A stretch of DNA of 64,000 nt from Dehalococcoidia bacterium. GTDB lineage: Bacteria > Chloroflexota > Dehalococcoidia > Lucifugimonadales > UBA2985. How positions within the stretch are numbered: the stretch's first letter is position 1; every line of letters starts with the position of its first letter. Shown in pieces: positions 4,113 to 62,843 of the stretch. The stretch covers positions 437,046 through 501,045 of the forward strand of contig OZ252018.1 in the NCBI GenBank assembly GCA_965247535.1, written 5' to 3'. The translations under genes and the position numbers were made by a program. The notes below the pieces were generated by a model that saw only the letters and a program-made list of their open reading frames with translations, was not told where the DNA came from and ran no database searches.

Positions 4113-5195
4113 ATGGACAACGTCGAATCCCTGCTGCAGGAGCTGACCAACGCGCACGGCCCTTCCGGCTTCGAGGGCCCGGTACGGGCAATCATGCAGC
4201 GCGAGCTGTCCGGCGTATGCGACGGCCTGGAAACGGACGGCATCGGCTCGCTCATCGGGAGGCTGGGCGAGGAGAGCGGCTCGCCCAGGGTTATGATGGC
4301 CGCCCACATGGACGAGGTGGGCCTCATAGTCAAGCTGATAACCAAAGAAGGATACGTGATGTTCCAAACCCTGGGAGGTTGGCTGGACCAGGCCCTCATC
4401 AATCAGCGATGGGTCATCATGACAAGGAACGGCCCTGTTCTCGGGGTCACCGGCGTGAAGACCGTACACGTGATGACCGCCGAGGCTCGGGGCCAGCTGT
4501 TCAAGAAAGAGCAGATGTTCATCGACGTGGGCGCATCCAGCAAGGAGGACGCCGAGGAGCGCCTGGCGATCCGGCCCGGCGACCCCATAGCGCCGGACAG
4601 CCTGTTCACGTCGCTCAACGGCGGCTCGCTGTACATGGCCAAGGCATGGGACGATCGCGTTGGCCTGGGCGTCATCGTCGAGGTTATGCGCCGCCTCAGG
4701 GAGTCGCCGCCGCCCAGCACGCTGTACGGAGTGGCCACCGTGCAGGAGGAGATAGGCCTGCGAGGCGCGCACACCAGCAGCTATGCCGTTGAGCCGGACT
4801 TGGGGATCAATCTGGAGACCGGCGTTGCTAGCGACTACCCTGGCATCACGCAGGAGGAGGCGCAGGAAAAGATAGGGAATGGCCCCTCCATCTTCCTGCA
4901 CGACTCTTCGATGGTGCCCAACCTCAAGCTGCGCGACCTGTTCGTGGACACGGCGCGCGAGAATGACATTCCGGTCCAGTTCGACGTGCTCAGCGGCTAC
5001 GGCGAGGACGGAGCGGAGATGCAGAGGTCTCGCAGCGGCGCGCCTTCCATCAACATCGCCATTCCCACTCGCTATCTCCACAGCCACAATGGCATCATCA
5101 GCCGGCAGGACTTCGACCGGACGGTGGACCTGGTAGTGGCGGTGGTGAGGAAGCTGGACGCGGACACGGTGCGGGAGCTGCGCAGCTTCGATTAG
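4113..5195 (+). CDS. M42-family aminopeptidase (FrvX/CelM/PepA-like)
   Basis: 360 aa. The N-terminus LLQELTNAHGPSGFEGPVR is typical of the family. Metal-ligand segments are present: AAHMDEVGL, WDDRVG, VQEEIGLRGA. Confidence 0.9.
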   Translation: MDNVESLLQELTNAHGPSGFEGPVRAIMQRELSGVCDGLETDGIGSLIGRLGEESGSPRVMMAAHMDEVGLIVKLITKEGYVMFQTLGGWLDQALINQRWVIMTRNGPVLGVTGVKTVHVMTAEARGQLFKKEQMFIDVGASSKEDAEERLAIRPGDPIAPDSLFTSLNGGSLYMAKAWDDRVGLGVIVEVMRRLRESPPPSTLYGVATVQEEIGLRGAHTSSYAVEPDLGINLETGVASDYPGITQEEAQEKIGNGPSIFLHDSSMVPNLKLRDLFVDTARENDIPVQFDVLSGYGEDGAEMQRSRSGAPSINIAIPTRYLHSHNGIISRQDFDRTVDLVVAVVRKLDADTVRELRSFD

Positions 5196-6611: not shown

Positions 6612-6646
6612 TAGCGCAAAATGAAAGACCCCGAAGCGCTTCGGTC
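6612..6646 (-). terminator. Rho-independent terminator candidate
   Basis: The minus strand reads GACCGAAGCGCTTCGGGGTC followed by TTTCATTTT. On the plus strand it could also stop the convergent Fic gene, although no T-run follows on that strand. Confidence 0.5.
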
Positions 6647-6812
6647 TGCGACCGTCCCGGTGGACTTGAGCCGGGAGCTTCGGGGTCCGGTGCCTGCCGG
6701 TATTCCGCAAGCGGATACCGGAGCGCCTTGCGTCCGGTGCCGTTTACGCTACAGACACCTCACTAGAAGTCCGTTTATCAGATAACAATATGGATCACCT
6801 CCTTTCTTAGCG
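6612..6812 (-). ncRNA. Candidate structured small transcript: extended anti-16S SD, 14-codon ORF, nested hairpins and terminator
   Basis: Possible promoter on the minus strand: TTGCGC (6849-6844), 18 nt, TATCTT (6825-6820). AAGAAAGGAGGTGATCCA (complement of 6791-6808). TTG ORF 6788-6744. Hairpins at 6697-6721 and 6627-6687. U-rich tail. No downstream gene on this strand. Confidence 0.35.
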
Positions 6813-6899
6813 TACCCACAAGATACACCCAGTATTTCCGCCAGCGCAAGGGGGTTTTCCAACTATTTTCTTTGACAAGGGCCGTTTGGGCGTGCCGAT

Positions 6900-7544
6900 T
6901 CAGCCCTCGCCCTCTCCGGCCTCCTCCTTCTGCACCATGTCCGCCACCCTCTTGAACAGGTCGTAGGGCTGCGCTCCGGAGAAGAAGTAACGCCCTATGA
7001 TGAAGGAGGGGATGCCCCTGACTCCAATCGAGAGGGCCTCCTCGTACTGCGTCTGCGCGGCGGCGGTGTAGTGGCCCGCGCCCACGCGCTCCTCCATTGA
7101 GGCGGGGTCAAGTCCCACCTGCTTGCCAATCTGCTGGAGAACCGATAGCTCCCCCAGGTTCGCTCCGTCCTCCCATAAGGCGCGGTAGCACTCCCGGTGG
7201 AACGGCTCAAAAAGGCCCTCGTCCTTGGCGAACTCGGAGGCCTCGAAAGCCAGGCGGGTGTTCGGCGTTACAGGCGCGCGGCGCATTACGAGCCCCGACT
7301 CCTCCGCCACCTCGCCCAGGTGGCCTGTCAGTGGCGACCCCGGCTGCTCGCCTTCCTTCTGCTCTCGCACGACGCCCTCGGGGGGCATGTCAGGCCTGAG
7401 GTAGAAGCTCTTGTAGGTAACGTCTAACGGAAAGTCCTGTTCCAGCTGGTCCAACCTGGCCAGTCCCACGTAGCACCAGGGTCAGATGTAGTCGTACCAG
7501 ACGGTAACGGGGACAAGCTTCGTGCCTGAATCACTTGCAGTCAT
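6900..7544 (-). CDS. DsbA/FrnE-family thiol:disulfide oxidoreductase, candidate selenoprotein (in-frame TGA at 7482-7484 = codon 21)
   Basis: ORFs 7482..7718 and 6900..7469 share one frame. Read-through gives VTVWYDYI-U-PWCYVGLARL, with the TGA at the first Cys of the CPWC motif. ATG 7544 has GGGAGGTG 5 nt upstream. A hairpin lies at 7442-7463. Confidence 0.7.
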
Positions 7545-7638
7545 GGGGCACCTCCCTTCGGGCCTGCGGCGGATGGCTCGCCCTGCCATTCTATAGGATG
7601 CGGCCCAAACTCGCCATACGCCGGTAGCCGGCCTGGCG

Positions 7639-7944
7639 TTAGCCCAGCAGGCACTCCTGGCAGCGGCACAGGCGCCGCAGCAGCTCAAACGGGTAGATGC
7701 CGGAGTCGTGGGCGTCACTCCAGAGGAATTGCACGGCGTAGCGGCCTATCTGCATCCATTCGACGGCAAATACGTCCTCCCGCACGTCGTCCTCCGTAAT
7801 CCTTCGGCGGCCCGTCATCTCCTCCACGCACCCGGCGCAGCAGCAGTGGCCGCGCAGGTAGCGGTGCGGGTAGAAGCCCGCGTGTCCGTCGTCCCAGTCT
7901 ATGTGGACGCCGTCGTCCTCGATCTTGAGGTCACGAAGCATCAA
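7639..7944 (-). CDS. DUF971 protein (gamma-butyrobetaine hydroxylase-like N-terminal zinc domain)
   Basis: 101 aa. HIDWDDGHAGFYPHRYLRGHCCCAGC and LWSDAHDSGIYPFELLR resemble the DUF971 family signature. Confidence 0.75.
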   Translation of the reverse strand: MMLRDLKIEDDGVHIDWDDGHAGFYPHRYLRGHCCCAGCVEEMTGRRRITEDDVREDVFAVEWMQIGRYAVQFLWSDAHDSGIYPFELLRRLCRCQECLLG

Positions 7945-8843: not shown

Positions 8844-10142
8844 TTGCAGACCACGAGACCGCTCACCCACGGGAGGAACGCGATCGCCATCCCGACATCC
8901 GCGACTCGCTTCGACCCTCATACACCACATGCGGCTTTGGAGACCGCCGTGGTGTTTCGCGACCTTGTGCCGGAGATTCCATCCACGACGTACGCCACGT
9001 TTGGCCTCTACAAGTATCCGGCCAAGTTCATCCCGCAGGTTATCGCCTACGCGCTGAAGACCTACGCCTCGCCCGGCATGAGCGTGATCGACCCGTTCGC
9101 CGGATACGGCACCGTGGGAACCGTGGCACGCGTATACGGCCACGACTACGAGCTATGGGACCTGAACCCCCTGCTGGAAAACCTTCACGCCGTTGCCGTA
9201 GCTCCTCCGTCCGCCGTGGACGCCGCTGCCCTGGTGGATGCGCTGCGTGCCCATCGCTCGCCGTTCAAGCCCGACTGGCCCAACGTATCTTACTGGTACC
9301 CCGAGCCCTTCCTCCCAATGCTGTCGGAAGCCTGGGGCTTCTACCACTCCCTTCAGGACGAGGACCTCCGGCGGGTGCTGCTCATACCGCTCATGAAGAC
9401 CACTCGATACTTCTCCTACAACGACGAGCGACGCCAGAAACTCTCCCGATCCACCATTGCCATGAGAAGGACCGAAAAGCTGGAGGGGGAGGACTGGCGC
9501 GCGACGTTCTACCGCCGCGTGCGAGCGGGGGTGGAACACGTTATCGCCTCACAGGAAGAGTACGCCAGGCTCGGCCCCGGGTCGGTGCGCTCAACGGTAA
9601 GGGCTGGCGTCGACGGTTTGGCAACGACGCCGGAGGCCGACCGCGATGTGCTCATAACGTCGCCGCCCTACCTGCAGGCGCAGGAATACATCCGTGCCTC
9701 CAAGATGGACCTGTTCTGGCTGGGCCACTCCCAGCGAGGGGTGCGGGAGTTGGTCAAGCACGAGTTCCCGTACCAGGACGTGCCAGAATCCCCAATTCAC
9801 TCGGAGACCTATCTCGAGTGCCTAAGTGAAATCCATGAGCCTCACATGGCGCGGCTGTTCCGGCGATACTTCTTTGGGGTGCTCGGCACGCTCACAAACC
9901 TTCAGGAGCACATATTGGACCGGCTGCTCATTTTCGTGGGGCCGGCCACCATACGTACCAGGCCCATTCCCATTGACCGCATATTCATCGAGCACTTCGA
10001 AGCTCTGGGCTGGCGCCACGAGGCCACGCTTGTGGACACCATAGTCTCGAAAAACCTGTTCTCGTACAGGGTAAACCCCGCCACGGGCGCGCCGGATCAG
10101 CGCATGAAAACTGAGAACCTGGTCGTTCTATCGAGGAGTTAA
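8844..10142 (+). CDS. SAM-dependent DNA methyltransferase (motif I DPFAGYGT upstream of motif IV SPPY; N4-C or N6-A type)
   Basis: YKYPAKFIPQVI...VIDPFAGYGTVG (AdoMet motif), ELWDLNP, then TSPPYLQAQEY about 190 aa later. The start is uncertain (TTG 8844 has no SD). Confidence 0.75.
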   Translation: MQTTRPLTHGRNAIAIPTSATRFDPHTPHAALETAVVFRDLVPEIPSTTYATFGLYKYPAKFIPQVIAYALKTYASPGMSVIDPFAGYGTVGTVARVYGHDYELWDLNPLLENLHAVAVAPPSAVDAAALVDALRAHRSPFKPDWPNVSYWYPEPFLPMLSEAWGFYHSLQDEDLRRVLLIPLMKTTRYFSYNDERRQKLSRSTIAMRRTEKLEGEDWRATFYRRVRAGVEHVIASQEEYARLGPGSVRSTVRAGVDGLATTPEADRDVLITSPPYLQAQEYIRASKMDLFWLGHSQRGVRELVKHEFPYQDVPESPIHSETYLECLSEIHEPHMARLFRRYFFGVLGTLTNLQEHILDRLLIFVGPATIRTRPIPIDRIFIEHFEALGWRHEATLVDTIVSKNLFSYRVNPATGAPDQRMKTENLVVLSRS

Positions 10143-10143
10143 C

Positions 10144-10668
10144 TTGGCTGCAAGAAGGGAAGAAATTGGCAGAGATGCCGCGGTAACGGGATTTGCAAAT
10201 GAGTTAATCGCTACCGGCATCCTGATGAAACGATACCAAAATGTATCCCAAGTTAACCTCCCTCTCTCACCTTACGACGTAGTTGCAGTTTTCAAGGGAG
10301 CCGACGGTAAAGAGAACGTAGTCCGTGCTCAAATACGGACGGCTAGTAAGAGCGTGGGCTTTACTGGAGGTTCCAGGGGAGGCGTGGATAGGACCTACAG
10401 GTCTGGCGTCAAGACGTATACTCAATCCACAATGACTTCTGACGTGGTAGTAGGAATAAACGACGTAGGGAATAATTCGTTTGACCTGTACTTTGTGCCG
10501 ACGGTTCTAATCGAGGCGCTAAAGCAGAGTAGCATTTCCCTGTCCAAGATAGCGCCTTTGAAAAACAACTACGAGATGTTCGAGAGGTGCAAGGATAGCT
10601 CATTCGTGCTGGCGCAGAGTATAGAATACGGCATTCTCAGAAGACAGGTGGGTTACTTTCTCCGTTAG
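10144..10668 (+). CDS. Candidate restriction endonuclease partner (small PD-(D/E)xK-like protein)
   Basis: 174 aa. TTG start lies 1 nt after the methyltransferase stop. PYDVVAV...(x13)...VRAQIRT resembles a D...(E/Q)x(K/R) nuclease core. The gene is markedly AT-richer than its neighbours. Confidence 0.45.
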   Translation: MAARREEIGRDAAVTGFANELIATGILMKRYQNVSQVNLPLSPYDVVAVFKGADGKENVVRAQIRTASKSVGFTGGSRGGVDRTYRSGVKTYTQSTMTSDVVVGINDVGNNSFDLYFVPTVLIEALKQSSISLSKIAPLKNNYEMFERCKDSSFVLAQSIEYGILRRQVGYFLR

Positions 10669-10698: not shown

Positions 10699-11001
10699 TT
10701 AACCCACCGGCCGCGGCGGCGGCCAAACGCCCTCGAAGAAGCAGCGGGTGCCCGTGCTCTGCGCGTCCATCATGGTTGGCGGCAGTATGCGCGCCGTCGC
10801 CCCGTCCTCGCACTCGATGAGCAGCGCCTTCTTCTCCACCTGCACGAGGGCGAAGTCGAAGAAACGCCCGCCGATCCCCATCAGCTCGCCGTGCCAGCGC
10901 CTCGTCCCGTCATCGCTGCTAACCCAGCCGAGCATACGACACCGCCCGTACTCGACGCCGTCCCTGTCTAGCAGGGTCACGATCTCATCATACGCCCACA
11001 T
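10699..11001 (-). CDS. Hypothetical protein
   Basis: A 100-aa ORF with genome-typical GC. No motif recognised. Confidence 0.4.
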   Translation of the reverse strand: MWAYDEIVTLLDRDGVEYGRCRMLGWVSSDDGTRRWHGELMGIGGRFFDFALVQVEKKALLIECEDGATARILPPTMMDAQSTGTRCFFEGVWPPPRPVG

Positions 11002-30041: not shown

Positions 30042-30117
30042 GGGGCTGTGGCTCAGTCGGGAGAGCGCCTCAATGGCATTGAGGAGGTCGGGGGTTCGAC
30101 TCCCCCCAGCTCCACCA
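30042..30117 (+). tRNA. tRNA-Ala (anticodon GGC), CCA encoded
   Basis: Cloverleaf read by hand. Acceptor GGGGCTG/CAGCTCC with the G3:U70 Ala identity pair. Anticodon loop ATGGCAT. T-loop TTCGACT. Confidence 0.9.
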
Positions 30118-40287: not shown

Positions 40288-40362
40288 TGGCTCCCCGAGT
40301 AGGATTCGAACCTACGACCTAGCGGTTAACAGCCGCCCGCTCTACCGCTGAGCTATCGGGGA
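40288..40362 (-). tRNA. tRNA-Asn (anticodon GTT), CCA encoded
   Basis: The minus strand reads TCCCCGATAGCTCAGCGGTAGAGCGGGCGGCTGTTAACCGCTAGGTCGTAGGTTCGAATCCTACTCGGGGAGCCA. Confidence 0.9.
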
Positions 40363-41244: not shown

Positions 41245-41321
41245 GGGCCGTTAGCTCAGCCTGGCAGAGCTCCGGACTTTTAATCCGGGAGTCCAGGGTT
41301 CGAATCCCTGACGGCCCACCA
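41245..41321 (+). tRNA. tRNA-Lys (anticodon TTT), CCA encoded
   Basis: GGGCCGTTAGCTCAGCCTGGCAGAGCTCCGGACTTTTAATCCGGGAGTCCAGGGTTCGAATCCCTGACGGCCCACCA. Confidence 0.9.
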
Positions 41322-47741: not shown

Positions 47742-48824
47742 TCAGCAGAACGGCAGCCCGAGCCGGTCGATGTCATTGGAGGACACTCGTAGAAGCCCCC
47801 TGGGGACGCACCCGGTCAGTGGGTTATCGGAGAGGTATAGGCCTCTAAGGTTGGAGAGGGTCGCAAGCTCCTGAGGAAACTCACCGCTCAACTGATTGTA
47901 ACCGAGGTACAACCCTTCGAGACTGGCTAGCTTGCCCAACGCGGGCGGAATCTCGCCACTCAGCTCGTTGCCTTCGAGGTTGAGCCCCAGCAAATCAGTC
48001 AAGTTGCCCAGCTCCGGCGGAATCTCACCGCTAAACTCGTTCCTATTGAGGTACAGCTTCTTCAGATTAGCGAGGCTGCCCAGGTACGCCGGAATCTCGC
48101 CGCTCAGCTGGTTGAAGGAGAGATTCAAGCTTTGCAGGCCGATCAGGCTGCTCAACTCCGGCGGTATTGTCCCGCTCAACTCGTTGCTCGCAAGAGACAG
48201 CCGCTCAAGGCTGGTCAGGCTCCCCAGCTCTGCCGGCAGCTCCCCGCCCAGTTCGTTGAAGTCCAAGCGTAGCCAATGGAGGCTGGCCAGCCCGCCGAGT
48301 TCAGGGGGTATGTCACCGCTCAACCGGTTAGACGTCAGCCAAAGCGTTCGGAGGCTGGTGAAGTTGCCCAACTGCGGCGGTATCTCTCCGCTCAGCTGAT
48401 TGTCACCGAGGTAAAGCGCCCGCAGGCCGGTGAGGCTTCCGAGCTCAGGAGGAATCTCACCAGTCAACTGATTGCTGAAGAGCGACAGCGCTACAACGCG
48501 GCCGCTTTCGTCCGTGGCCACGCCGTGCCATTCGTCTAAGGGGGCGTCACTCAGCCAGTTGGTGCTGTCAACCCAATTGGCGCCGTCCGTGGAGTTGTAT
48601 AGAGCCAGTAGCGCGGCTCGGTCCGCATCCGTCGGCAACGTAGGCTCGGGTGTCAGAGTAGACGCCGGCACATGAGTCCGCGTTGGTGGAGGCGTAGCGG
48701 TGGGTGCAGCTGTCGCGGTGGGCGAGGGCGACGGTGTTGGAGTCGGGTCCTCGTCGCAGGACGCGAGTAGAAGCGCTGCAGCAGTAGCTATGACGATGGC
48801 AATGAGTCCGGCTGCCTTACGCAT
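47742..48824 (-). CDS. Lipoprotein with plant-type leucine-rich repeats (one LRR block, ~10 repeats)
   Basis: Lipobox LLLASC, TP-rich linker, N-cap ADRAALLALYNSTDGANW..W.GV, 24-residue repeats LxxLxxLxLxxNxLSGxIPxELGx, C-cap NPLTGCVPRGL...LGLPFC. Confidence 0.9.
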   Translation of the reverse strand: MRKAAGLIAIVIATAAALLLASCDEDPTPTPSPSPTATAAPTATPPPTRTHVPASTLTPEPTLPTDADRAALLALYNSTDGANWVDSTNWLSDAPLDEWHGVATDESGRVVALSLFSNQLTGEIPPELGSLTGLRALYLGDNQLSGEIPPQLGNFTSLRTLWLTSNRLSGDIPPELGGLASLHWLRLDFNELGGELPAELGSLTSLERLSLASNELSGTIPPELSSLIGLQSLNLSFNQLSGEIPAYLGSLANLKKLYLNRNEFSGEIPPELGNLTDLLGLNLEGNELSGEIPPALGKLASLEGLYLGYNQLSGEFPQELATLSNLRGLYLSDNPLTGCVPRGLLRVSSNDIDRLGLPFC

Positions 48825-49041
48825 GTTGCGCGCTGCCTCCCGGGCTGCGTATGCCCCTCAACGCTCCTGGCACAGTGGAGCCTCTTGATCCTGTGAGAGT
48901 AGATTTCAAGTGCTCAGTCTCTCAATCTACAACTCAGCAGAATTTCACGCAAGGGAAGATCGTCACCCGTAGGGCTACCGGCGGGCTTAGCCTCTTGTGC
49001 TTACCAGTGACTTAGGTTCCTGACCATCATTGGTCGCCGTA

Positions 49042-51297
49042 CTAGCAGAACGGCAGGCCGAGGCGGTCGATGTCGTTGGAGGACACTCGCAGAAGCCCCC
49101 TGGGGATGCAGCCGGTCAGTGGGTTATCGGAGATGTACAGGCTTCTCAGGTTGGAGAGGGTTGCGAGCTCTTGGGGGATTTCCCCGCTCAACTGATTGTA
49201 ACCGAGGTACAACCATTCAAGGCCGGCTAGCTTGCCCAGCTCCCGTGGAATCTCGCCACTCAGCTCGTTGCCTTCCAGGTTCAGCCCCTGCAGATAAGTC
49301 AAGTTGCCCAGCTCCGGCGGAATCTCTCCGCTCAGCTCGTTCCCGGAAAGGTCAATCGAATGTAGGTAGGCCAGCCTGCCCAGTTCCGGCGGAATCTCGC
49401 CGCTGAGCTCGTTCTCGGAAAGGTCAATCGACCAGAGGTAGGCTAGCCTGCCTAGCGCAGTCGGCATTGCCCCGCTTAGCTGGTTTCCAGAGAGAAACAG
49501 CTGCCCTAGGCTGGGAAGGTTGCCCAACTCTGGCGGTATCTCTCCGCTCAACTCGTTGCTGTGGAGATACAGCCTCCGCAAGTTTGGGAGTCCGCCCAAT
49601 GCCGCCGGCAGGCTGCCGCTCAACTCGTTGTAGGCGAGATTCAGCGTCTGCAGGTTGACGAGGCTGCCCAACTCCGAGGGTATCTCACCTGTCAACTCGT
49701 TGCTGCCGAGACTAAGCTTTTTCAGCTTGACGAGGTTGCCAAGCTCCGGCGGAAGCTCGCCCGTCAGCCCATTGCGGGAGAAGGCCAACTCCTCCAGGTT
49801 GGAGAGGTTTCCAATCCCCCGCGGCAATCTTCCACTAAGGTTTTTGTCGGAGAGGTCTAGCTTAACAACGCGGCCGCTGTCGTCCGTGGTGACACCGTGC
49901 CATTGTCCCAGAGGCGCGTCGCTGAGCCAGTTTGTGTTGTCGGTCCAGTTCGGGCCGTCCGTGGCGAAGTATAACGCCACCAGCGGCTGCCTGTCAGAGT
50001 GGCAGTAGGCCAAGCCAAGCTCATCAAAATCGTCGAAATAGATCCTCAGACCATTGGGTATGCACCCGGTTAGCCGGTTGTCGGAGAGGTACAGATCCTC
50101 TAACCTGGAGAGTCTACCCAGTTCCGGAGGTATATTTCCGCGCAGCTGGTTTTGGCGGAGGTTCAGTTCCCTCAAATTGGACAAATCTCCCAGCGAAAGT
50201 GGAATCTCACCGCCCAGCTGGTTGTCTGGGAGGTTCAAGGACTCCAGCATTGAAATGTTCCCCAGTTCCGGTGGGATGTCACCGCTCAGGTAATTGTCTC
50301 CGAGGTCCAACTGCCTGAGGTTGGCGAGTCTTCCCAGCTCCGGCGGAATCTCGCCTGTCAATTGGTTGAGAGAGAGATCCAAGATTCTCAGTCTGGCGAG
50401 GTTGCCCAATTCCGGCGGTATCTCTCCGCTCAGCTGGTTCCCCAAGAGTTTCAGCCATAGAAGGTTGGACAGACTGCCGAGCTCCGGCGGTATAGGTCCG
50501 CTCAACTCGTTCCCAAAGAGGTTCAGCCATTGAAGGTTGGCTAGACCGCCAAACTCCGGTGGTATCTCTCCGCTCAACCGGTTGTCCGAGAGGTACAGGC
50601 CTTCGAGACTCGACAGGCTGCCGAGCTCCGCAGGAATTGCCCCGCCCAGGTCGTTCAGGCCGAGACTTAGCCTTCGCAGATTGACGAGGTTGCCCAGTTC
50701 CGGCGGTATCTCTCCGCTCAGCTGGTTGCTCCTGAGGTTAAGCGACTCCAGGTTGGAAAGGTTACCTAGTTCCGGCGGAATAGGTCCGCTCAACTCGTTC
50801 CCCAAGAGGTGCAGCGACTCCAGGTTGGAAAGGTTACCTAGTTCCGGCGGAATCTCTCCGCTCAACTGGTTGAACCACAGGCCTAGGCCTTTGAGGTTAG
50901 AGAGGCTGCCCAGCTCCCGGGGAATCTCTCCGCTCAGTCGGTGCTTGGAGAGGAGCAGATCTACAACGCGGCCGCTGTCGTCCGTGTTGACGCCGAACCA
51001 ATCTCCCAGGGGCGCTTCGGTGAGCCAGTTGGTGTCGTATCTCCAGTTGGGGCCATCCGTTGCGTTGTAGAGCGCGATCAGCGCGGCCCGGTCCGCGTCC
51101 GCCGGCACCGGAGTCCACGTGGGCGGAGGCGTTGGTGTGGCCTCAGGTGTACTCGTGGGAGCCGCAGTTGCAGTGGGTGCTGCTGTCGCGGTGGGCGAGG
51201 GCGACGGTGTTGGTGTCGGGTCCTCGGCGCAGGACGCGAGTAGAAGCGCTGCAGCAGCAGCTATGACGATGGCAATGAGTCCGGCTGCCTTACGCAT
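49042..51297 (-). CDS. Lipoprotein with plant-type leucine-rich repeats (two cap-LRR-cap blocks; 13+11 repeats by my count)
   Basis: Same architecture as 47742..48824. The first ~45 residues are nearly identical to that gene. Confidence 0.9.
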   Translation of the reverse strand: MRKAAGLIAIVIAAAAALLLASCAEDPTPTPSPSPTATAAPTATAAPTSTPEATPTPPPTWTPVPADADRAALIALYNATDGPNWRYDTNWLTEAPLGDWFGVNTDDSGRVVDLLLSKHRLSGEIPRELGSLSNLKGLGLWFNQLSGEIPPELGNLSNLESLHLLGNELSGPIPPELGNLSNLESLNLRSNQLSGEIPPELGNLVNLRRLSLGLNDLGGAIPAELGSLSSLEGLYLSDNRLSGEIPPEFGGLANLQWLNLFGNELSGPIPPELGSLSNLLWLKLLGNQLSGEIPPELGNLARLRILDLSLNQLTGEIPPELGRLANLRQLDLGDNYLSGDIPPELGNISMLESLNLPDNQLGGEIPLSLGDLSNLRELNLRQNQLRGNIPPELGRLSRLEDLYLSDNRLTGCIPNGLRIYFDDFDELGLAYCHSDRQPLVALYFATDGPNWTDNTNWLSDAPLGQWHGVTTDDSGRVVKLDLSDKNLSGRLPRGIGNLSNLEELAFSRNGLTGELPPELGNLVKLKKLSLGSNELTGEIPSELGSLVNLQTLNLAYNELSGSLPAALGGLPNLRRLYLHSNELSGEIPPELGNLPSLGQLFLSGNQLSGAMPTALGRLAYLWSIDLSENELSGEIPPELGRLAYLHSIDLSGNELSGEIPPELGNLTYLQGLNLEGNELSGEIPRELGKLAGLEWLYLGYNQLSGEIPQELATLSNLRSLYISDNPLTGCIPRGLLRVSSNDIDRLGLPFC

Positions 51298-51373
51298 GTG
51301 CTCGGTCTCTCCAATCTACACCTTGGCTTAAGTCGAAGCAAGTGAGAGTCGTCGTGCCGGAGGATGGCAATGC

Positions 51374-53920
51374 CTAGCAGAACGGCAGGCCGAGCCTCAC
51401 GAAGTCGTTGTTGGGCACGAACAGCAGCCCGTATGGGACACAGCCGGTGAGCCGGTTGTCGGAAAGGTATAGGCTTCTCAGGTTGGAGAGGCTGCCTAGC
51501 TCCGGCGGAATCTCTCCGGTCAGATTGTTGTCCGACAGAACAAGATATTCGAGGTTGGTGAGCTGGCCCAGCTCCGGCGGAATCTCGCCGCTCAACTCGT
51601 TACCATCTAGGCCCAGCCCCAACAGGTTGACCAAGTTGCCCATCTCCGGTGGTATCTTACCGCTCAACTCATTCCTTCGGAGAGTCAGCCTCTGCAGGTT
51701 GGCAAGGTTGCCTAATTCTGGAGGCAAGCTACCGCTCAACTGGTTGAAGGAGACATCCAGGCTTTGCAGGCTGGCGAGCCTACCCAGCTCCGCCGGTATT
51801 GTTCCACTCAACTCATTCCCGAAGAGAGACAGGTGTCGGAGGCTGGCCATATCGCCCAGCGCAGGCGGAATTGTCCCACTCAACTCGTTCCCGACTAAGT
51901 CCAGCCAATTGAGGTTGGTCAGCCTGCCCAATTCCTGCGGAATCTCTCCGCTCAACCGGTTGGACTGCAGCATAAGTGTTCGCAGGTCGGTCAGGTTGCC
52001 CAACTGCGGTGGTATCTCTCCGCTCAGATCGTTCCGGGAAAGGTCCAGCGATTGAAGATCGACTAGACTGCCCAGCTCAGGAGGAATCTCTCCGGTCAAT
52101 TGATTCTCGGAGAGGAACAGCAATTCAAGGTTGGGCAAGCTGCCCAGCTCCGGCGGTATAGCGCCGCTCAGCTGGTTGGAGAAGAAGTCCAGTTCCTGCA
52201 AACTGGCGAGGTTGCCCAGCACCGGCGGTAACTCCCCGCTCAGCTCGTTGAAGCCCAGGTACAGGGATCGCAGGCTGGTCAGGCTGCCGAGTTCCGGGGG
52301 TATCGCGCCGCTCAGCTGGTTGCCGCGGAAATTCAATGTCTGCAGGCTGGCGAGGCCGACAAGCTCCACCGGCAGACCGCCGCTCAACTCGTTGCTATCC
52401 AGATACAGCTCTTGCAGGTTTACGAGACCGCCAAGTTCGGGCGGTATCGCGCCGGTCAGCTCGTTCCTGCTGAGACTGAGCGTTTGCAGCTCGACGAGGC
52501 CGCCGAGCTCGGGGGGTATCTCGCCGGTCAACTCGTTTCTGCTGAGATCGAGCGTTTGCAGCTCGACGAGGCCGCCAAGCTCCGGCGGAAGCTCGCCCGT
52601 CAGCCCATTGCGTGAGAGGGCCAACTCCTCCAGGTTGGAGAGGGTTCCAATCCCCCGCGGCAATCTTCCACTAAGGTTATTGTCGGAGAGGACTAGCTTA
52701 ACAACGCGGCCGCTGTCGTCCGTGGTGACACCGTGCCATTGTCCCAGAGGCGCGTCGCTGAGCCAGTTTGTGTTGTCGGCCCAGTTGGTGCCGTTCGTGG
52801 CGCAGTACAGGGCCAACAGCGCGGTCCTGTCCGCTGACTCAGCGAGTGATTGAGCTAGAGCTGCGTCGCCGAAGGGCACCCCCACCTCGTCCAGGTCATT
52901 GTTGGGCACGTTGAACAGCACGTCGGGCACGCACCTCGAAAGCGAGTTGCCCGCAAGCCGGAGATGTCGCAGGCTGGGGAGGTCGCCCAGCTCCGGTGGT
53001 ATGTCGCCGCTCAACCGGTTGTTGCTGAGGGCAAGCTCCCGCAGGCTGCGGAGGCTGCCCAGCTCCGCTGGTATGTCTCCGCTCAGGTGGTTGTCGCTGA
53101 GGGCAAGCACCTGGAGGTCGTGGAGATCACCCAGGTCCGGCGGAATCCCCCCGTTCAACCGGTTGTGACGCAGGTTCAGCTGCCTCAGACTGGAAAGGCC
53201 TCCCAGCTCTGACGGTATGGCTCCGCTCAGGTCATTCTGTGAGAGGCTCAGCGCTTCCAGTGCGGTCAGCTTGCCGAGCTCCGGCGAGATACTGCCGCTC
53301 AGCCCGTTGTTGTAGAGGCTAAGCTCTGTCAGGTTAGAAAGCTCGGCAAGCTCCGGCGGAATCTTGCCGCTCAGATCGTTGCTGTTGAGGTGCAGGGTCT
53401 CCAGGCCGGAAAGGCCGCCCAGCTCGGGCGGGATCTCGCCCGTCAACTGGTTGGCTCCGAGGGAGAGCGTCTGCAGATCGGAAAGGGTGGCCAGCTCCTT
53501 CGGTATCTCACCGTGCAGCCCGTTGTTGCTGAGCTCAAGCCATCGCAGATTCGCAAGGCTTGCCAGCTCCGGCGGTATCTCTCCCCTCATGCCGTTGCCC
53601 CAGAGGTAGAGGCTCACCACACGGCCGTCGTCGCCCGTGTCGATGCCGTACCAGTCATCCAGGGGCGAGTCGCTCAGCCAGTTGTTGTTGCTCCCCCAGT
53701 GCGGGCCGCCCGTGGCGAAGTAGAGCCGAACCAGCACGGCCCTCTCGGCGTCCGAATCCGAGGGTGTTGGGGTGGGAGTCGGCGTGCGCTCTGATGTGGG
53801 AGTCGGCGTGTGCGCGGGAGTGGCCGTTGGGGTAGGGGTCGGCGCAACAGCGCAGGCCGCGAGTAGGAGCGCGGCCACCACGGCCAGTGTCAGGGTCACG
53901 TGTCTCGTCGGGTTTGGCAT
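51374..53920 (-). CDS. Lipoprotein with plant-type leucine-rich repeats (two blocks; 10+18 repeats by my count)
   Basis: Lipobox LLLAAC, TP-rich linker, the same caps and the same 24-residue consensus. It ends in RLGLPFC. Confidence 0.9.
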   Translation of the reverse strand: MPNPTRHVTLTLAVVAALLLAACAVAPTPTPTATPAHTPTPTSERTPTPTPTPSDSDAERAVLVRLYFATGGPHWGSNNNWLSDSPLDDWYGIDTGDDGRVVSLYLWGNGMRGEIPPELASLANLRWLELSNNGLHGEIPKELATLSDLQTLSLGANQLTGEIPPELGGLSGLETLHLNSNDLSGKIPPELAELSNLTELSLYNNGLSGSISPELGKLTALEALSLSQNDLSGAIPSELGGLSSLRQLNLRHNRLNGGIPPDLGDLHDLQVLALSDNHLSGDIPAELGSLRSLRELALSNNRLSGDIPPELGDLPSLRHLRLAGNSLSRCVPDVLFNVPNNDLDEVGVPFGDAALAQSLAESADRTALLALYCATNGTNWADNTNWLSDAPLGQWHGVTTDDSGRVVKLVLSDNNLSGRLPRGIGTLSNLEELALSRNGLTGELPPELGGLVELQTLDLSRNELTGEIPPELGGLVELQTLSLSRNELTGAIPPELGGLVNLQELYLDSNELSGGLPVELVGLASLQTLNFRGNQLSGAIPPELGSLTSLRSLYLGFNELSGELPPVLGNLASLQELDFFSNQLSGAIPPELGSLPNLELLFLSENQLTGEIPPELGSLVDLQSLDLSRNDLSGEIPPQLGNLTDLRTLMLQSNRLSGEIPQELGRLTNLNWLDLVGNELSGTIPPALGDMASLRHLSLFGNELSGTIPAELGRLASLQSLDVSFNQLSGSLPPELGNLANLQRLTLRRNELSGKIPPEMGNLVNLLGLGLDGNELSGEIPPELGQLTNLEYLVLSDNNLTGEIPPELGSLSNLRSLYLSDNRLTGCVPYGLLFVPNNDFVRLGLPFC

Positions 53921-62428: not shown

Positions 62429-62781
62429 GATAGGTAGGCTGGGTGATCGCTCTGACGCTGTCAGGGAGGAAAGTCCGAGCTCCACTGGGCAGGATGCTGG
62501 CTAACGGCCAGGCGGGGAAACCCGACGGAAAGTGCCACAGAAAACATACCGCCCCGCACGCGGGGTAAGGGCGAACCGGTGAGGCAAGAGCTCACCGCTC
62601 CGGTGGCAACACCGGGGGCACGGTAAACCCCATCCGGAGCAAGGCCGAATAGGAGGACCAAGGGCGCCCGGCCTGTCCTCGGGTTGGCTGCTAGAGGCGC
62701 TGGGCAACCGGCGTCCCAGATAGATGATCGCCATCCCGTCGTTAGATGGGATACAGAACTCGGCTTACAGGCCTGCCTATC
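62429..62781 (+). ncRNA. rnpB: RNase P RNA, bacterial type A
   Basis: GAGGAAAGTCCGAGCTCC, CACAGAAAACATACCGCC, GGTAAGGGCGAA, GGTAAACCCCATCCGGAGCAAGGCCGAATAGG, ACAGAACTCGGCTTAC. P1 pairs GATAGGTAGGCTGG with CAGGCCTGCCTATC. Confidence 0.9.
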
Positions 62782-62843
62782 AACGGCGCCCTGCATCGGC
62801 CAGTCCGACGCAGCCACGATCCTGTTCTCCCGGGGCCACACAC

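Follow-up and report, generated by a model that had tools for sequence, protein, structure and literature searches.

A conserved in-frame TGA as a candidate selenocysteine codon in the active site of an FrnE/DsbA-like oxidoreductase of Dehalococcoidia

Gene layout and protein family

In the 64-kb stretch of Dehalococcoidia DNA analyzed here (the window), two open reading frames of the minus strand, 7482..7718 and 6900..7469, were found to lie in a common frame and to be parted by a single TGA codon (7484–7482). Read-through from the ATG at 7544–7542 (minus strand), identified from the sequence and its translation, gave the product MTASDSGTKLVPVTVWYDYI-[TGA]-PWCYVGLARLDQLEQ..., in which the internal TGA had the context VWYDYI-[TGA]-PWC. 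The translation agreed with the gene proposed in the initial annotation: the full-length frame (6900..7544, minus strand) consisted of 214 codons and a terminal TGA (6902–6900), and the internal TGA (7482..7484) was codon 21, which we propose as the selenocysteine (Sec) codon on the basis of its conservation and of an alignment with FrnE. A Shine–Dalgarno-like sequence, GGGAGGTG, was read directly from the minus strand at 7549..7556. The ribosome-binding site that had been claimed was thus present, but its spacer to the ATG, CCCC, was 4 nt and not 5 nt long. The codons TGA CCC TGG TGC (7473..7484, minus strand) corresponded to a U-P-W-C redox motif by translation and by alignment with homologues. 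The shortened ORF that appears in the ORF list and is chosen by gene callers (6900..7469, minus strand) starts with a GTG at 7469 and encodes 189 amino acids, lacking both strand beta-1 and the active site.

When U was replaced by C, residues 13–198 of the protein matched the Pfam family PF01323 (DSBA) with an E-value of 5.9e-30 and a score of 104.9 bits (cut-off, 25.6), and positions 2–187 of the 191 in the profile were covered. The only NCBIfam match was NF041057, the Rcas_1661 thioredoxin-like (seleno)lipoprotein of Roseiflexus, a family of the same phylum (Chloroflexota) that has Sec members; membership in it was rejected, as the match scored 32.5 bits, below the cut-off of 190 bits, was confined to residues 98–202 in the C-terminal half, and came without a lipoprotein signal. 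Among solved structures, the best match was Deinococcus FrnE (PDB ID: 5CNW), with residues 8–196 and an E-value of 2.8e-22. The U-P-W-C motif aligned column for column with the C-P-W-C of FrnE, and the first Cys corresponded to the TGA codon, in agreement with the position initially assigned to it within CxxC. A predicted cis-Pro loop, G177-I178-P179 (7008..7016, minus strand), opposite the active site, aligned with G-V-P of FrnE, and G177 and P179 were invariant across the family alignment. Deinococcus radiodurans FrnE (PDB IDs: 5CNW and 5CP1), a cytoplasmic DsbA-fold oxidoreductase/isomerase, resembles the window protein in the ...W.D..CPWCY.G... context and in the G-[VI]-P cis-Pro loop, and it likewise lacks a signal peptide, whereas it has Cys where the window protein has the proposed Sec, is 260 rather than 214 amino acids long, and is approximately 30% identical. 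The last Cys of the window protein was C119, and its C-terminus lay at residue 214 (…KEEAGEGEG). The C-terminal tail of FrnE carries an additional CX4C motif, which was not found in the 214-residue protein, and the assignment as an FrnE proper of the Deinococcus type was not retained. By inspection, no signal peptide was obvious: the N-terminus, MTASDSGTKLVPVTVWYDYIU, enters strand beta-1 directly and contains no hydrophobic segment. The protein is therefore presumably cytoplasmic, and the missing N-terminal export signal argued against a classical periplasmic DsbA.

In the neighborhood of the gene, synteny of the upstream DUF971-HIT-AsnC genes was seen only in the closest relatives; because it was so confined, a functional partner could not be inferred from it, and a conserved operon partner was rejected. 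A conserved RNA was located downstream of the gene in the window. Since it was absent from the flanks of three related loci (L005, L026, and L042), its adjacency is probably a matter of local synteny, and a functional link with the gene was not retained. In a related clade, a second conserved TGA-containing gene, which matched the CC/Se-motif (seleno)protein family NF041239, was observed 2.2–2.4 kb downstream of that clade's copy of the gene.

Conservation of the TGA codon and its flanks

We collected 95 Dehalococcoidia/SAR202-related loci covering the site from GTDB genomes, JGI/ENA metagenomes, and Logan assemblies, with protein identities to the window of 39–98%; a full-length match of 98% identity was found in OZ244716.1, and a gene of 96% identity in ERZ25072670 (ctg256743_12x_c). 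TGA was present at exactly this codon in 90 of the 95 loci, which included approximately 60 distinct nucleotide sequences and comprised 86 loci with the VWYDYI-U-PWC context and four more distant ones with U-PFC. TGT, encoding Cys, occupied the codon in a groundwater lineage only (L005–L008 and L067; P0007/L005). In a neighbor-joining tree this lineage was nested within the Sec clade, and its position points to a Sec-to-Cys reversal that probably took place once, in the groundwater lineage. Homologues of approximately 30% identity (P0061, P0062, and P0067, together with FrnE) had CPWC at the site. The expectation that homologues would carry either Cys or TGA in this column was borne out by these three groups, namely the 90 TGA loci, the single TGT lineage, and the distant FrnE-like CPWC proteins. 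A blind screen of all collected DNA for in-frame TGA codons with open flanks also brought out the cluster of this gene, with 86 members and 60 unique sequences; its minimum nucleotide identity was 0.59, whereas that of every other cluster was at least 0.64 and mostly at least 0.78. Significance beyond chance comes from the recurrence of the TGA at one and the same codon across 90 of the 95 homologous loci, and not from the downstream hairpin alone.

In the eleven codons upstream of the TGA (−11 to −1), variation was found almost solely at third positions, which indicated that these codons are translated. The amino acids V-W-Y-D-Y-I (−6 to −1) and P-W-C-Y (+1 to +4) were invariant or nearly invariant over varying third positions; the P, W, and C of the motif did not vary at the amino acid level among the 65 unique sequences, and the codons for P and C varied in their third position. 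Purifying selection at the protein level extended from codon −11 to codon −1 before the TGA and from codon +1 to codon +13 after it. The start codons of orthologues lay 17–22 codons upstream of the TGA; those sampled had an ATG at the position corresponding to ATG 7544, and a ribosome-binding site was visible in most of them. The initial annotation had raised the possibility that orthologues might be consistently truncated pseudogenes. They are not in decay: both flanks were under purifying selection, and every orthologue kept an upstream start.

A hairpin downstream of the UGA codon

The local minimum free energy fold of the mRNA downstream of the UGA was a SECIS-like hairpin (7446..7463, minus strand; −7.8 kcal/mol) that begins 18 nt past the UGA and has 7 bp plus a bulge. 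It is composed of a 5' arm CUGGCCA (7463–7457), an apical loop GGU (7456–7454), and a 3' arm UGG(A)CCAG (7453–7446) in which A 7450 is bulged. [quoted passage not shown] The window hairpin taken alone was not above shuffled sequence (z of −0.6 to −1.0; z of −1.0 with dinucleotide shuffles), and neither was the folding of a 91-nt stretch (z of +0.48). As single-sequence folding was not significant, comparative and synonymous-recoding tests were used instead. When RNAalifold was applied to 60 Sec sequences, the pan-clade consensus contained only a trivial 4-bp helix, and a single SECIS structure common to all clades was rejected; the clades were analyzed separately, because the hairpin registers differ between them.

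In clade A, which comprises 20 distinct sequences, the hairpin was 99.3% paired, two of its pairs showed double compensatory changes, and its covariation score was reached by none of 500 shuffles. Synonymous double changes from C:G to U:A were found in L027/L058, L064, and L030/L066. When segments along the gene were compared with synonymous recoding, the lowest z (mean of −1.39) was that of the 39-nt segment from the UGA. We found three clade-specific hairpins at similar positions, each 95–100% paired, with apical loops that start with G (GGU, GGCN, and a GCN type consisting of GCN, GUA, and GAU) at 23–30 nt from the U of the UGA. The Cys orthologue had no stable hairpin (−4.6 kcal/mol, z of +1.4). 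A conserved hairpin after the UGA, for which the initial annotation had proposed a search among orthologues, was thus present, with compensatory synonymous changes and the lowest recoding z. The fold that it had drawn for 7442–7463, pairing CUGGC with GCUGG and GGU with ACC, is possible and was 95.6% paired, but it showed no compensatory changes and was not above shuffles. Because the co-changing positions 26/32 and 21/38 (counted with the U of the UGA as 0) sit in the bulge and loop of that pairing, the register 7463–7446 was preferred. The covariation rests on few substitutions, since most stem positions are invariant and are also constrained by the peptide GLARLD, and the support for a SECIS-like hairpin is accordingly modest. 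Whether the three hairpins represent mutually exclusive SECIS registers, built within one orthologous family from synonymous GLARLD codons, is in our estimate an even bet.

Decoding of the UGA codon and alternative readings

Of the 29 large ORFs of the window, 12 end in TGA, the gene itself among them, which indicated that the codon has not been reassigned. No tRNA-Sec, selA, selB, or selD was detected by ARAGORN and tblastn in the 64-kb window or in approximately 1 Mb of related-locus flanks, where the tblastn queries were approximate E. coli SelA, SelB, and SelD sequences; the sole SelB-like match, in L026, was TypA/BipA. We infer that selA, selB, selD, and tRNA-Sec lie elsewhere in the genome. 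Indirect support for Sec machinery in the lineage is available from the literature (PMC13326102, PMC5649159, bioRxiv 10.1101/2022.01.25.477282), and two Dehalococcoidia MAGs, with 49 and 46 genes, are among the top ten bacterial selenoproteomes (PMC13326102). Two screens for in-frame TGA codons, one by GC3 and the other by codon-usage log-odds of the flanks, revealed no further selenoprotein genes in the window; the other in-frame TGAs were antisense-frame artefacts or gene ends running in frame into the next gene.

The best explanation, to which we assign a probability of about 0.92, is that the gene at 7544–6900 encodes a 214-residue FrnE/DsbA-like thiol-disulfide oxidoreductase with Sec at the position of the nucleophilic active-site Cys (U21-P-W-C24). 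The comparison as a whole, with the TGA in 90 of 95 loci, the conserved flanks, the Cys homologues, and the hairpin, strongly supported the candidate selenoprotein suggested at the outset. UGA codon 21 would be decoded by Sec-tRNA(Sec) brought by the elongation factor SelB, which the hairpin at 7463–7446, lying 18 nt past the UGA within the coding sequence and carrying the GGU loop, would recruit. The enzyme would alternate between a selenolate/thiol form and a Se–S (selenenylsulfide) bond with Cys24, in a cycle that may serve the reduction or isomerization of substrate disulfides. Such insertion would resemble the E. coli fdhF type, in which the hairpin also lies within the coding sequence, directly past the UGA, and carries a small loop starting with G; the hairpins of this family start 13–18 nt after the UGA, a further likeness to fdhF-type Sec insertion. 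Compared with the fdhF element, the hairpin here is shorter and weaker, three alternative pairings occur among the clades, and SelB binding is putative.

DsbA-like UxxC selenoproteins (COG2761/PF01323) have been catalogued since 2005 in marine metagenomes, as the initial annotation had stated: from the Sargasso Sea (PMC1088965), from GOS (PMC2398784), and in a 2026 review that lists a 'DsbA-like protein form 1, PF01323, UxxC' (PMC13188914). Both this published form 1 (DsbA 1) and the window gene belong to PF01323, have a UxxC motif with Sec first, come from marine sources, and carry within the coding region a SECIS or SECIS-like hairpin whose small apical loop contains G. The likeness to the published representatives AACY01178397 and NIP15863.1 is one of domain and motif description, and the clade described here differs from the published DsbA-like selenoproteins in belonging to the Dehalococcoidia/SAR202-type Chloroflexota.

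An alternative is that the UGA is read through without Sec, a suppressor tRNA or a non-canonical one supplying Cys or, for example, Trp to give a CPWC or WPWC protein; one such case would be a Cys-charged tRNA that has a UCA anticodon and depends on SelB. In some bacteria, SelB-dependent tRNAs are described as inserting Cys at UGA. One ENA pipeline rendered the codon in P0015 as W, so that the residue at the UGA is not decidable from the sequence alone, although this W is a translation-table artefact, as the DNA has TGA and the product does not match it under table 11. The termination of 12 of 29 large ORFs by TGA argues that general suppression is absent, and a UGA at the catalytic Cys, followed by a SECIS-like hairpin, is the classical signature of Sec. 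Dehalococcoidia MAGs are also on record as rich in selenoproteins (PMC13326102). With Cys insertion, TGA should often have given way to TGT or TGC, whereas this was seen in one lineage only. We consider non-Sec read-through very improbable. Slightly less probable still is its lineage-wide, site-specific form, in which recoding without selenium would be carried out by a SelB/SECIS-dependent non-canonical tRNA inserting Cys or another residue.

It might also be supposed that the TGA is a true stop and that the 189-residue product from GTG 7469, chosen by every public gene call, is a genuine DsbA-domain protein without CxxC, the upstream 20 codons being a separate small ORF or an untranslated leader. 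Some DsbA-fold proteins, such as the HCCA isomerase-like ones, do function without CxxC. This supposition leaves unexplained why codons −11 to −1 and PWCY vary synonymously over a conserved amino acid sequence, and the upstream codons together with the downstream part rebuild strand beta-1 of FrnE and the start of the CPWC helix. In addition, the starts called in orthologues vary (MGLARLD, MDQLEQ, MEQDF, and MKKEF), which indicated that the downstream start is not conserved, and we regard the shorter product as hardly credible. A pseudogene formed by nonsense mutation, or a TGA due to sequencing or assembly error, has a negligible probability: seen in one sequence, a lone stop within a frame that is otherwise undamaged would resemble a recent nonsense mutation, but the same TGA occurred in 90 independent assemblies from short reads, long reads, and different projects, in approximately 60 different sequences with protein identities as low as 39%, with the rest of the frame intact and both flanks under purifying selection, and the divergence of the loci excluded copies of one contaminant.

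The reading of codon 21 as Sec has consequences for annotation. All public products examined (NCBI, JGI, ENA, and Logan) were 'DsbA family protein' entries of 180–191 amino acids starting after the TGA, and those of P0001 and other records had a truncation identical to the 189-residue call in the window; automated callers thus do cut off the active site, as had been predicted. The gene is cut short by pipelines because a Sec codon looks like a stop, and since there is no curated NCBIfam model for the family, the error will keep spreading. As a consequence of the truncated annotation, thiol-redox inferences for SAR202-type Dehalococcoidia are wrong. General knowledge of selenoproteins is unchanged, the gene being a mis-annotated addition to the published DsbA-like UxxC family. 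The family would offer a clean natural example of a SECIS hairpin rebuilt in different registers beneath a fixed peptide, and it adds a well-supported, nearly universally Sec-containing FrnE-like oxidoreductase to a selenoprotein-rich clade of marine Chloroflexota.

The TGA-interrupted gene and its homologues

The DsbA/FrnE-like gene occupies a single frame on the minus strand (7544–6900), which contains 214 sense codons and one interrupting TGA at 7484–7482. This TGA is codon 21, in the surroundings KLVPVTVWYDYI-[TGA]-PWCYVGLARLDQLEQ, and the ORF list carries the gene as a piece upstream of the TGA (7482..7718, minus) and a downstream piece with a GTG start (6900..7469, minus). The frame and its two ORF pieces were present in the sequence, as the initial annotation had described; the RBS-like sequence that it had noted, GGGAGGTG at 7556–7549, was also found before the ATG start (7544–7542), with a spacer of 4 nt, not 5. 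With the TGA entered as Cys, residues 13–198 matched Pfam DSBA (PF01323) with an E value of 5.9e-30 and 104.9 bits (cut-off, 25.6), and the nearest solved structure was Deinococcus radiodurans FrnE (5CNW/5CP1; E 2.8e-22). FrnE VDIWSDIACPWCYIG was aligned to VTVWYDYI[TGA]PWCYVG of the gene, and the G-V-P loop of FrnE to G177-I-P179. The FrnE alignment puts the TGA on the leading Cys of CPWC in the active site, and what had been noted from the sequence alone is confirmed.

Among 5.8 billion predicted proteins searched, nearly all close homologues (60–96% identity) were 180–191 aa long and began directly past the TGA position, with the N-termini MGLARLD..., MDQLEQ..., and MEQDF.... Only two close homologues were full-length, the public proteins P0007 (CPWC) and P0015 (WPWC); the Trp of P0015 is a pipeline translation, and the underlying DNA (locus L004, 104–739; ENA ERZ2662549) reads a Sec TGA. 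We fetched DNA for 40 loci in GTDB representative genomes, for 51 metagenome loci, and for contigs obtained by exact protein look-up. The genome records of the homologues were labelled Dehalococcoidia, Chloroflexota, or SAR202 cluster bacterium, and the nearest of them, OZ244716.1, was 98% identical. Among the 95 loci that covered the site, 86 had TGA within VWYDYI-U-PWCY[IV]GL, four further and more distant loci (39–43% identity) had TGA within WFDYT-U-PFC, and five, all one groundwater sequence, had TGT. The Sec-bearing set comprised approximately 60 distinct nucleotide sequences.

In 65 unique sequences, the amino acids at codons -6 to -1 and +1 to +4 were invariant or nearly so while third positions varied freely, with three codons in use for Ile -1 and all four third-position bases for Val -6. 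The sampled orthologues had an ATG 17–22 codons 5' of the TGA, most with an RBS. This synonymous-type variation and the upstream starts indicated that the stretch 5' of the TGA is translated in the same frame, by which a true stop followed by a downstream restart is effectively excluded. A pseudogene is likewise effectively excluded by the retention of TGA in 90 of 95 loci and the purifying pattern on both sides, and a sequencing error by the recurrence of the same codon in those loci and in the distinct Sec-bearing sequences. TGA is not reassigned here; it terminates 12 of the 29 large ORFs in the window, the gene under study among them. A blind screen of all in-frame TGAs with open flanks, across all fetched DNA, singled out the TGA cluster of this gene (86 members, 60 unique; minimum nucleotide identity, 0.59), and the remaining clusters were off-frame images of conserved genes with identities of at least 0.64, mostly at least 0.78. 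The reading of the TGA as Sec, as given in the initial annotation, is supported by its presence in 90 of 95 loci and by codon conservation on both sides.

The TGT sequence (L005–L008 and L067; groundwater metagenome ERZ909605/GCA_900218215.1) was the sole Cys form in the family, and its source was groundwater, not marine. In a neighbour-joining tree this lineage was nested in the Sec clade beside a SAR202 sequence; from this position, Sec appears to be ancestral and the Cys form a Sec-to-Cys reversal. Its neighbourhood differed, with a Na+/H+ exchanger upstream and MoxR/DUF58 downstream, and the Cys orthologue had no stable hairpin (-4.6 kcal/mol, z +1.4).

Hairpins downstream of the UGA

Positions are numbered with the U of the UGA as 0. 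The window sequence did not fold convincingly by itself, with z scores of +0.48 (91 nt) and -1.0 (hairpin), and RNAalifold on all clades together gave no consensus structure, because three clades of orthologues use different hairpins. Individual folds showed that all three are built from synonymous codons of one peptide, G-L-A-R-L-D/E. The hairpin of clade A, to which the window belongs, is CUGGCCA[GGU]UGG(A)CCAG at 21–38 (window 7463–7446, minus; -7.8 kcal/mol, 99% paired within the clade), that of clade B is UCGGCCU[GGCN]AGGC(U)CGA at 16–34 (about -8 kcal/mol, 95% paired), and that of clade C is UCGGGCUG[GCN-type: GCN, GUA or GAU]CGGCUCGA at 16–34 (-10 kcal/mol, z -3.0, 100% paired). Each structure fitted the other clades poorly (48–74% paired). 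All three apical loops start with G, the base that the consensus for bacterial SECIS elements requires (PMC1088965; PMC13582414). Compensatory synonymous double changes to U:A were found at C26:G32 (L027/L058), C21:G38 (L064), and C20:G29 (L030/L066). Across 20 distinct clade A sequences, 99.3% of cells were paired and two pairs had changed on both sides; the covariation score was reached by none of 500 shuffles, and every slid control scored far lower. The initial annotation had proposed a hairpin here, and its conservation with compensatory changes held, but the base-pairing register first drawn for the same bases is less well supported (95.6% paired, zero double changes, no excess over shuffles). 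When each gene was compared with its random synonymous recodings, the most over-structured stretch was the 39-nt window from the UGA (mean z -1.39; p ≤ 0.05 in 36% of sequences). The support for a SECIS-like element is real but moderate, because most stem positions are invariant and constrained by the peptide as well.

Sec machinery and neighbouring elements

Insertion of Sec would proceed by the bacterial SelB/SECIS route. The only tRNAs in the window (30042–30117, 40288–40362, and 41245–41321) were tRNA-Ala(GGC), tRNA-Asn(GUU), and tRNA-Lys(UUU); a class A RNase P RNA was found at 62431–62783 (plus; 314 bits). In the window and approximately 1 Mb of related flanks, ARAGORN detected no tRNA-Sec, and E. 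coli queries detected no SelA, SelB, or SelD; one weak SelB-like match in the flanks was TypA/BipA. Two Dehalococcoidia MAGs, with 49 and 46 selenoprotein genes, are in the BSepDB top ten of bacteria, one with an isolate-name style like that of the genomes found here (PMC13326102). SelA/SelB are enriched in sponge-symbiont bins of several phyla (PMC5649159), Lost City SAR202 MAGs encode GrdB, and the glycine-reductase MAGs of that study had SelA and SelB in most grd clusters (bioRxiv 10.1101/2022.01.25.477282).

Loci of clade C, a related Dehalococcoidia clade, contained a second candidate selenoprotein gene of 93 codons, 2.2–2.4 kb downstream of the DsbA-like TGA (L089 4858–5139, plus, TGA at 4933; MTDEARDHIRDLGRPIALDYLSAIG-[TGA]-GGHAKVSVDTYARK...; also in L040–L045, L048, L081–L086, L088, L092, and L093). 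Its in-frame TGA (…DYLSAIG-U-GGHAKV…) was kept in 16 loci with 10 unique sequences, and the ORF gave a full-length match to the CC/Se-motif (seleno)protein model NF041239 at 32.7 bits (E 5.7e-8), under the 40-bit cut-off; the window had no counterpart of it. This gene and the literature on Dehalococcoidia, SAR202, and sponge bins lend indirect support to the presence of Sec machinery.

A conserved structured RNA of approximately 194 nt (6620–6813, minus) followed the selenoprotein gene in the same orientation, 87 nt further downstream, and recurred in L009 (10732–10925), L016 (12132–12325), L031 (11583–11743), and about 30 other loci. It just passed the gathering score of Rfam RF02471 Ms_IGR-5 (46.5 bits; gathering score, 45), which Rfam describes as an actinobacterial sRNA of unknown function, whereas the host genomes here are Chloroflexota. 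Across about 30 loci the RNA kept 83–100% identity, against only ~70% between the DsbA-like proteins of those loci, and had compensatory changes at 11 base pairs. It contained a conserved 14–15-codon ORF (MLSDKRTSSEVSVA) that starts with TTG or ATG and has its indels in multiples of three (3 and 6 nt), and it ended in a branched terminator-like stem and a U-rich tract. Its 5' end, AAGGAGGUGAUC, is a 12-nt perfect complement of what we take to be the 16S rRNA 3' end, and the GGUG inside it was predicted to pair with CACC ~125 nt downstream. In more distant clades the RNA did not accompany the selenoprotein gene: the flanks of L005, L026, and L042 lacked it, and a functional tie between the two is therefore unlikely. 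In L026, from the MAG of SAR202 cluster bacterium OSU_TB53, the DsbA-like selenoprotein gene was followed after ~200 nt by a TPP riboswitch (RF00059, 62 bits; 10837–10948, plus).

Elsewhere in the window, three tandem genes of 360, 751, and 848 aa (47742–53920, minus) began with lipoprotein-like N-termini and continued into long Pro/Thr-rich linkers; the N-terminal ~45 residues of the first two were almost identical (MRKAAGLIAIVIA.AAALLLASC.EDPTPTPSPSPTATAAPTAT...), which suggests a recent duplication. Of two consecutive ORFs at 8844–10668 (plus), the first, of 432 aa, had an SPPY motif, presumably that typical of N4/N6 DNA methyltransferases, and the second, of 174 aa, had a third-position GC of 0.54 versus about 0.8 in neighbouring genes; together they may form a restriction-modification pair that was acquired horizontally.

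The predicted product and its family

Judged by its sequence, the product is most likely a FrnE-like thiol-disulfide oxidoreductase whose active site is U-P-W-C; no signal peptide was visible in it, and it is presumably cytoplasmic. Sec21 would be the exposed nucleophile and would form a selenenylsulfide with Cys24. The product lacks the extra C-terminal cysteines that we take to be a feature of FrnE. The DUF971, HIT, and AsnC-type neighbour genes were syntenic in the closest relatives only and thus gave no clue to function. The gene fits by definition (PF01323 and UxxC) the published DsbA-like UxxC family, and is not a member of the Rcas_1661 family (32.5 vs. 190 bits). DsbA-like (COG2761/PF01323) UxxC selenoproteins are on record from the Sargasso Sea (nine sequences, 2005; PMC1088965) and from GOS, where 63 sequences named 'DsbA 1' showed enrichment in marine samples (PMC2398784); a 2016 count put them in 41 organisms, and a 2026 review has them as 'DsbA-like protein form 1' (PMC13188914).

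The gene is almost certainly a genuine selenoprotein gene that has been mis-annotated, and as such is unsurprising. No NCBIfam model covers the family, and the public products examined for the clade were all shortened 'DsbA family protein' or hypothetical proteins, in agreement with the expectation that gene callers truncate it. For P0015, the caller presumably chose a genetic code with TGA as Trp on a short contig, and records of this kind could falsely put Trp at the catalytic position in alignments.
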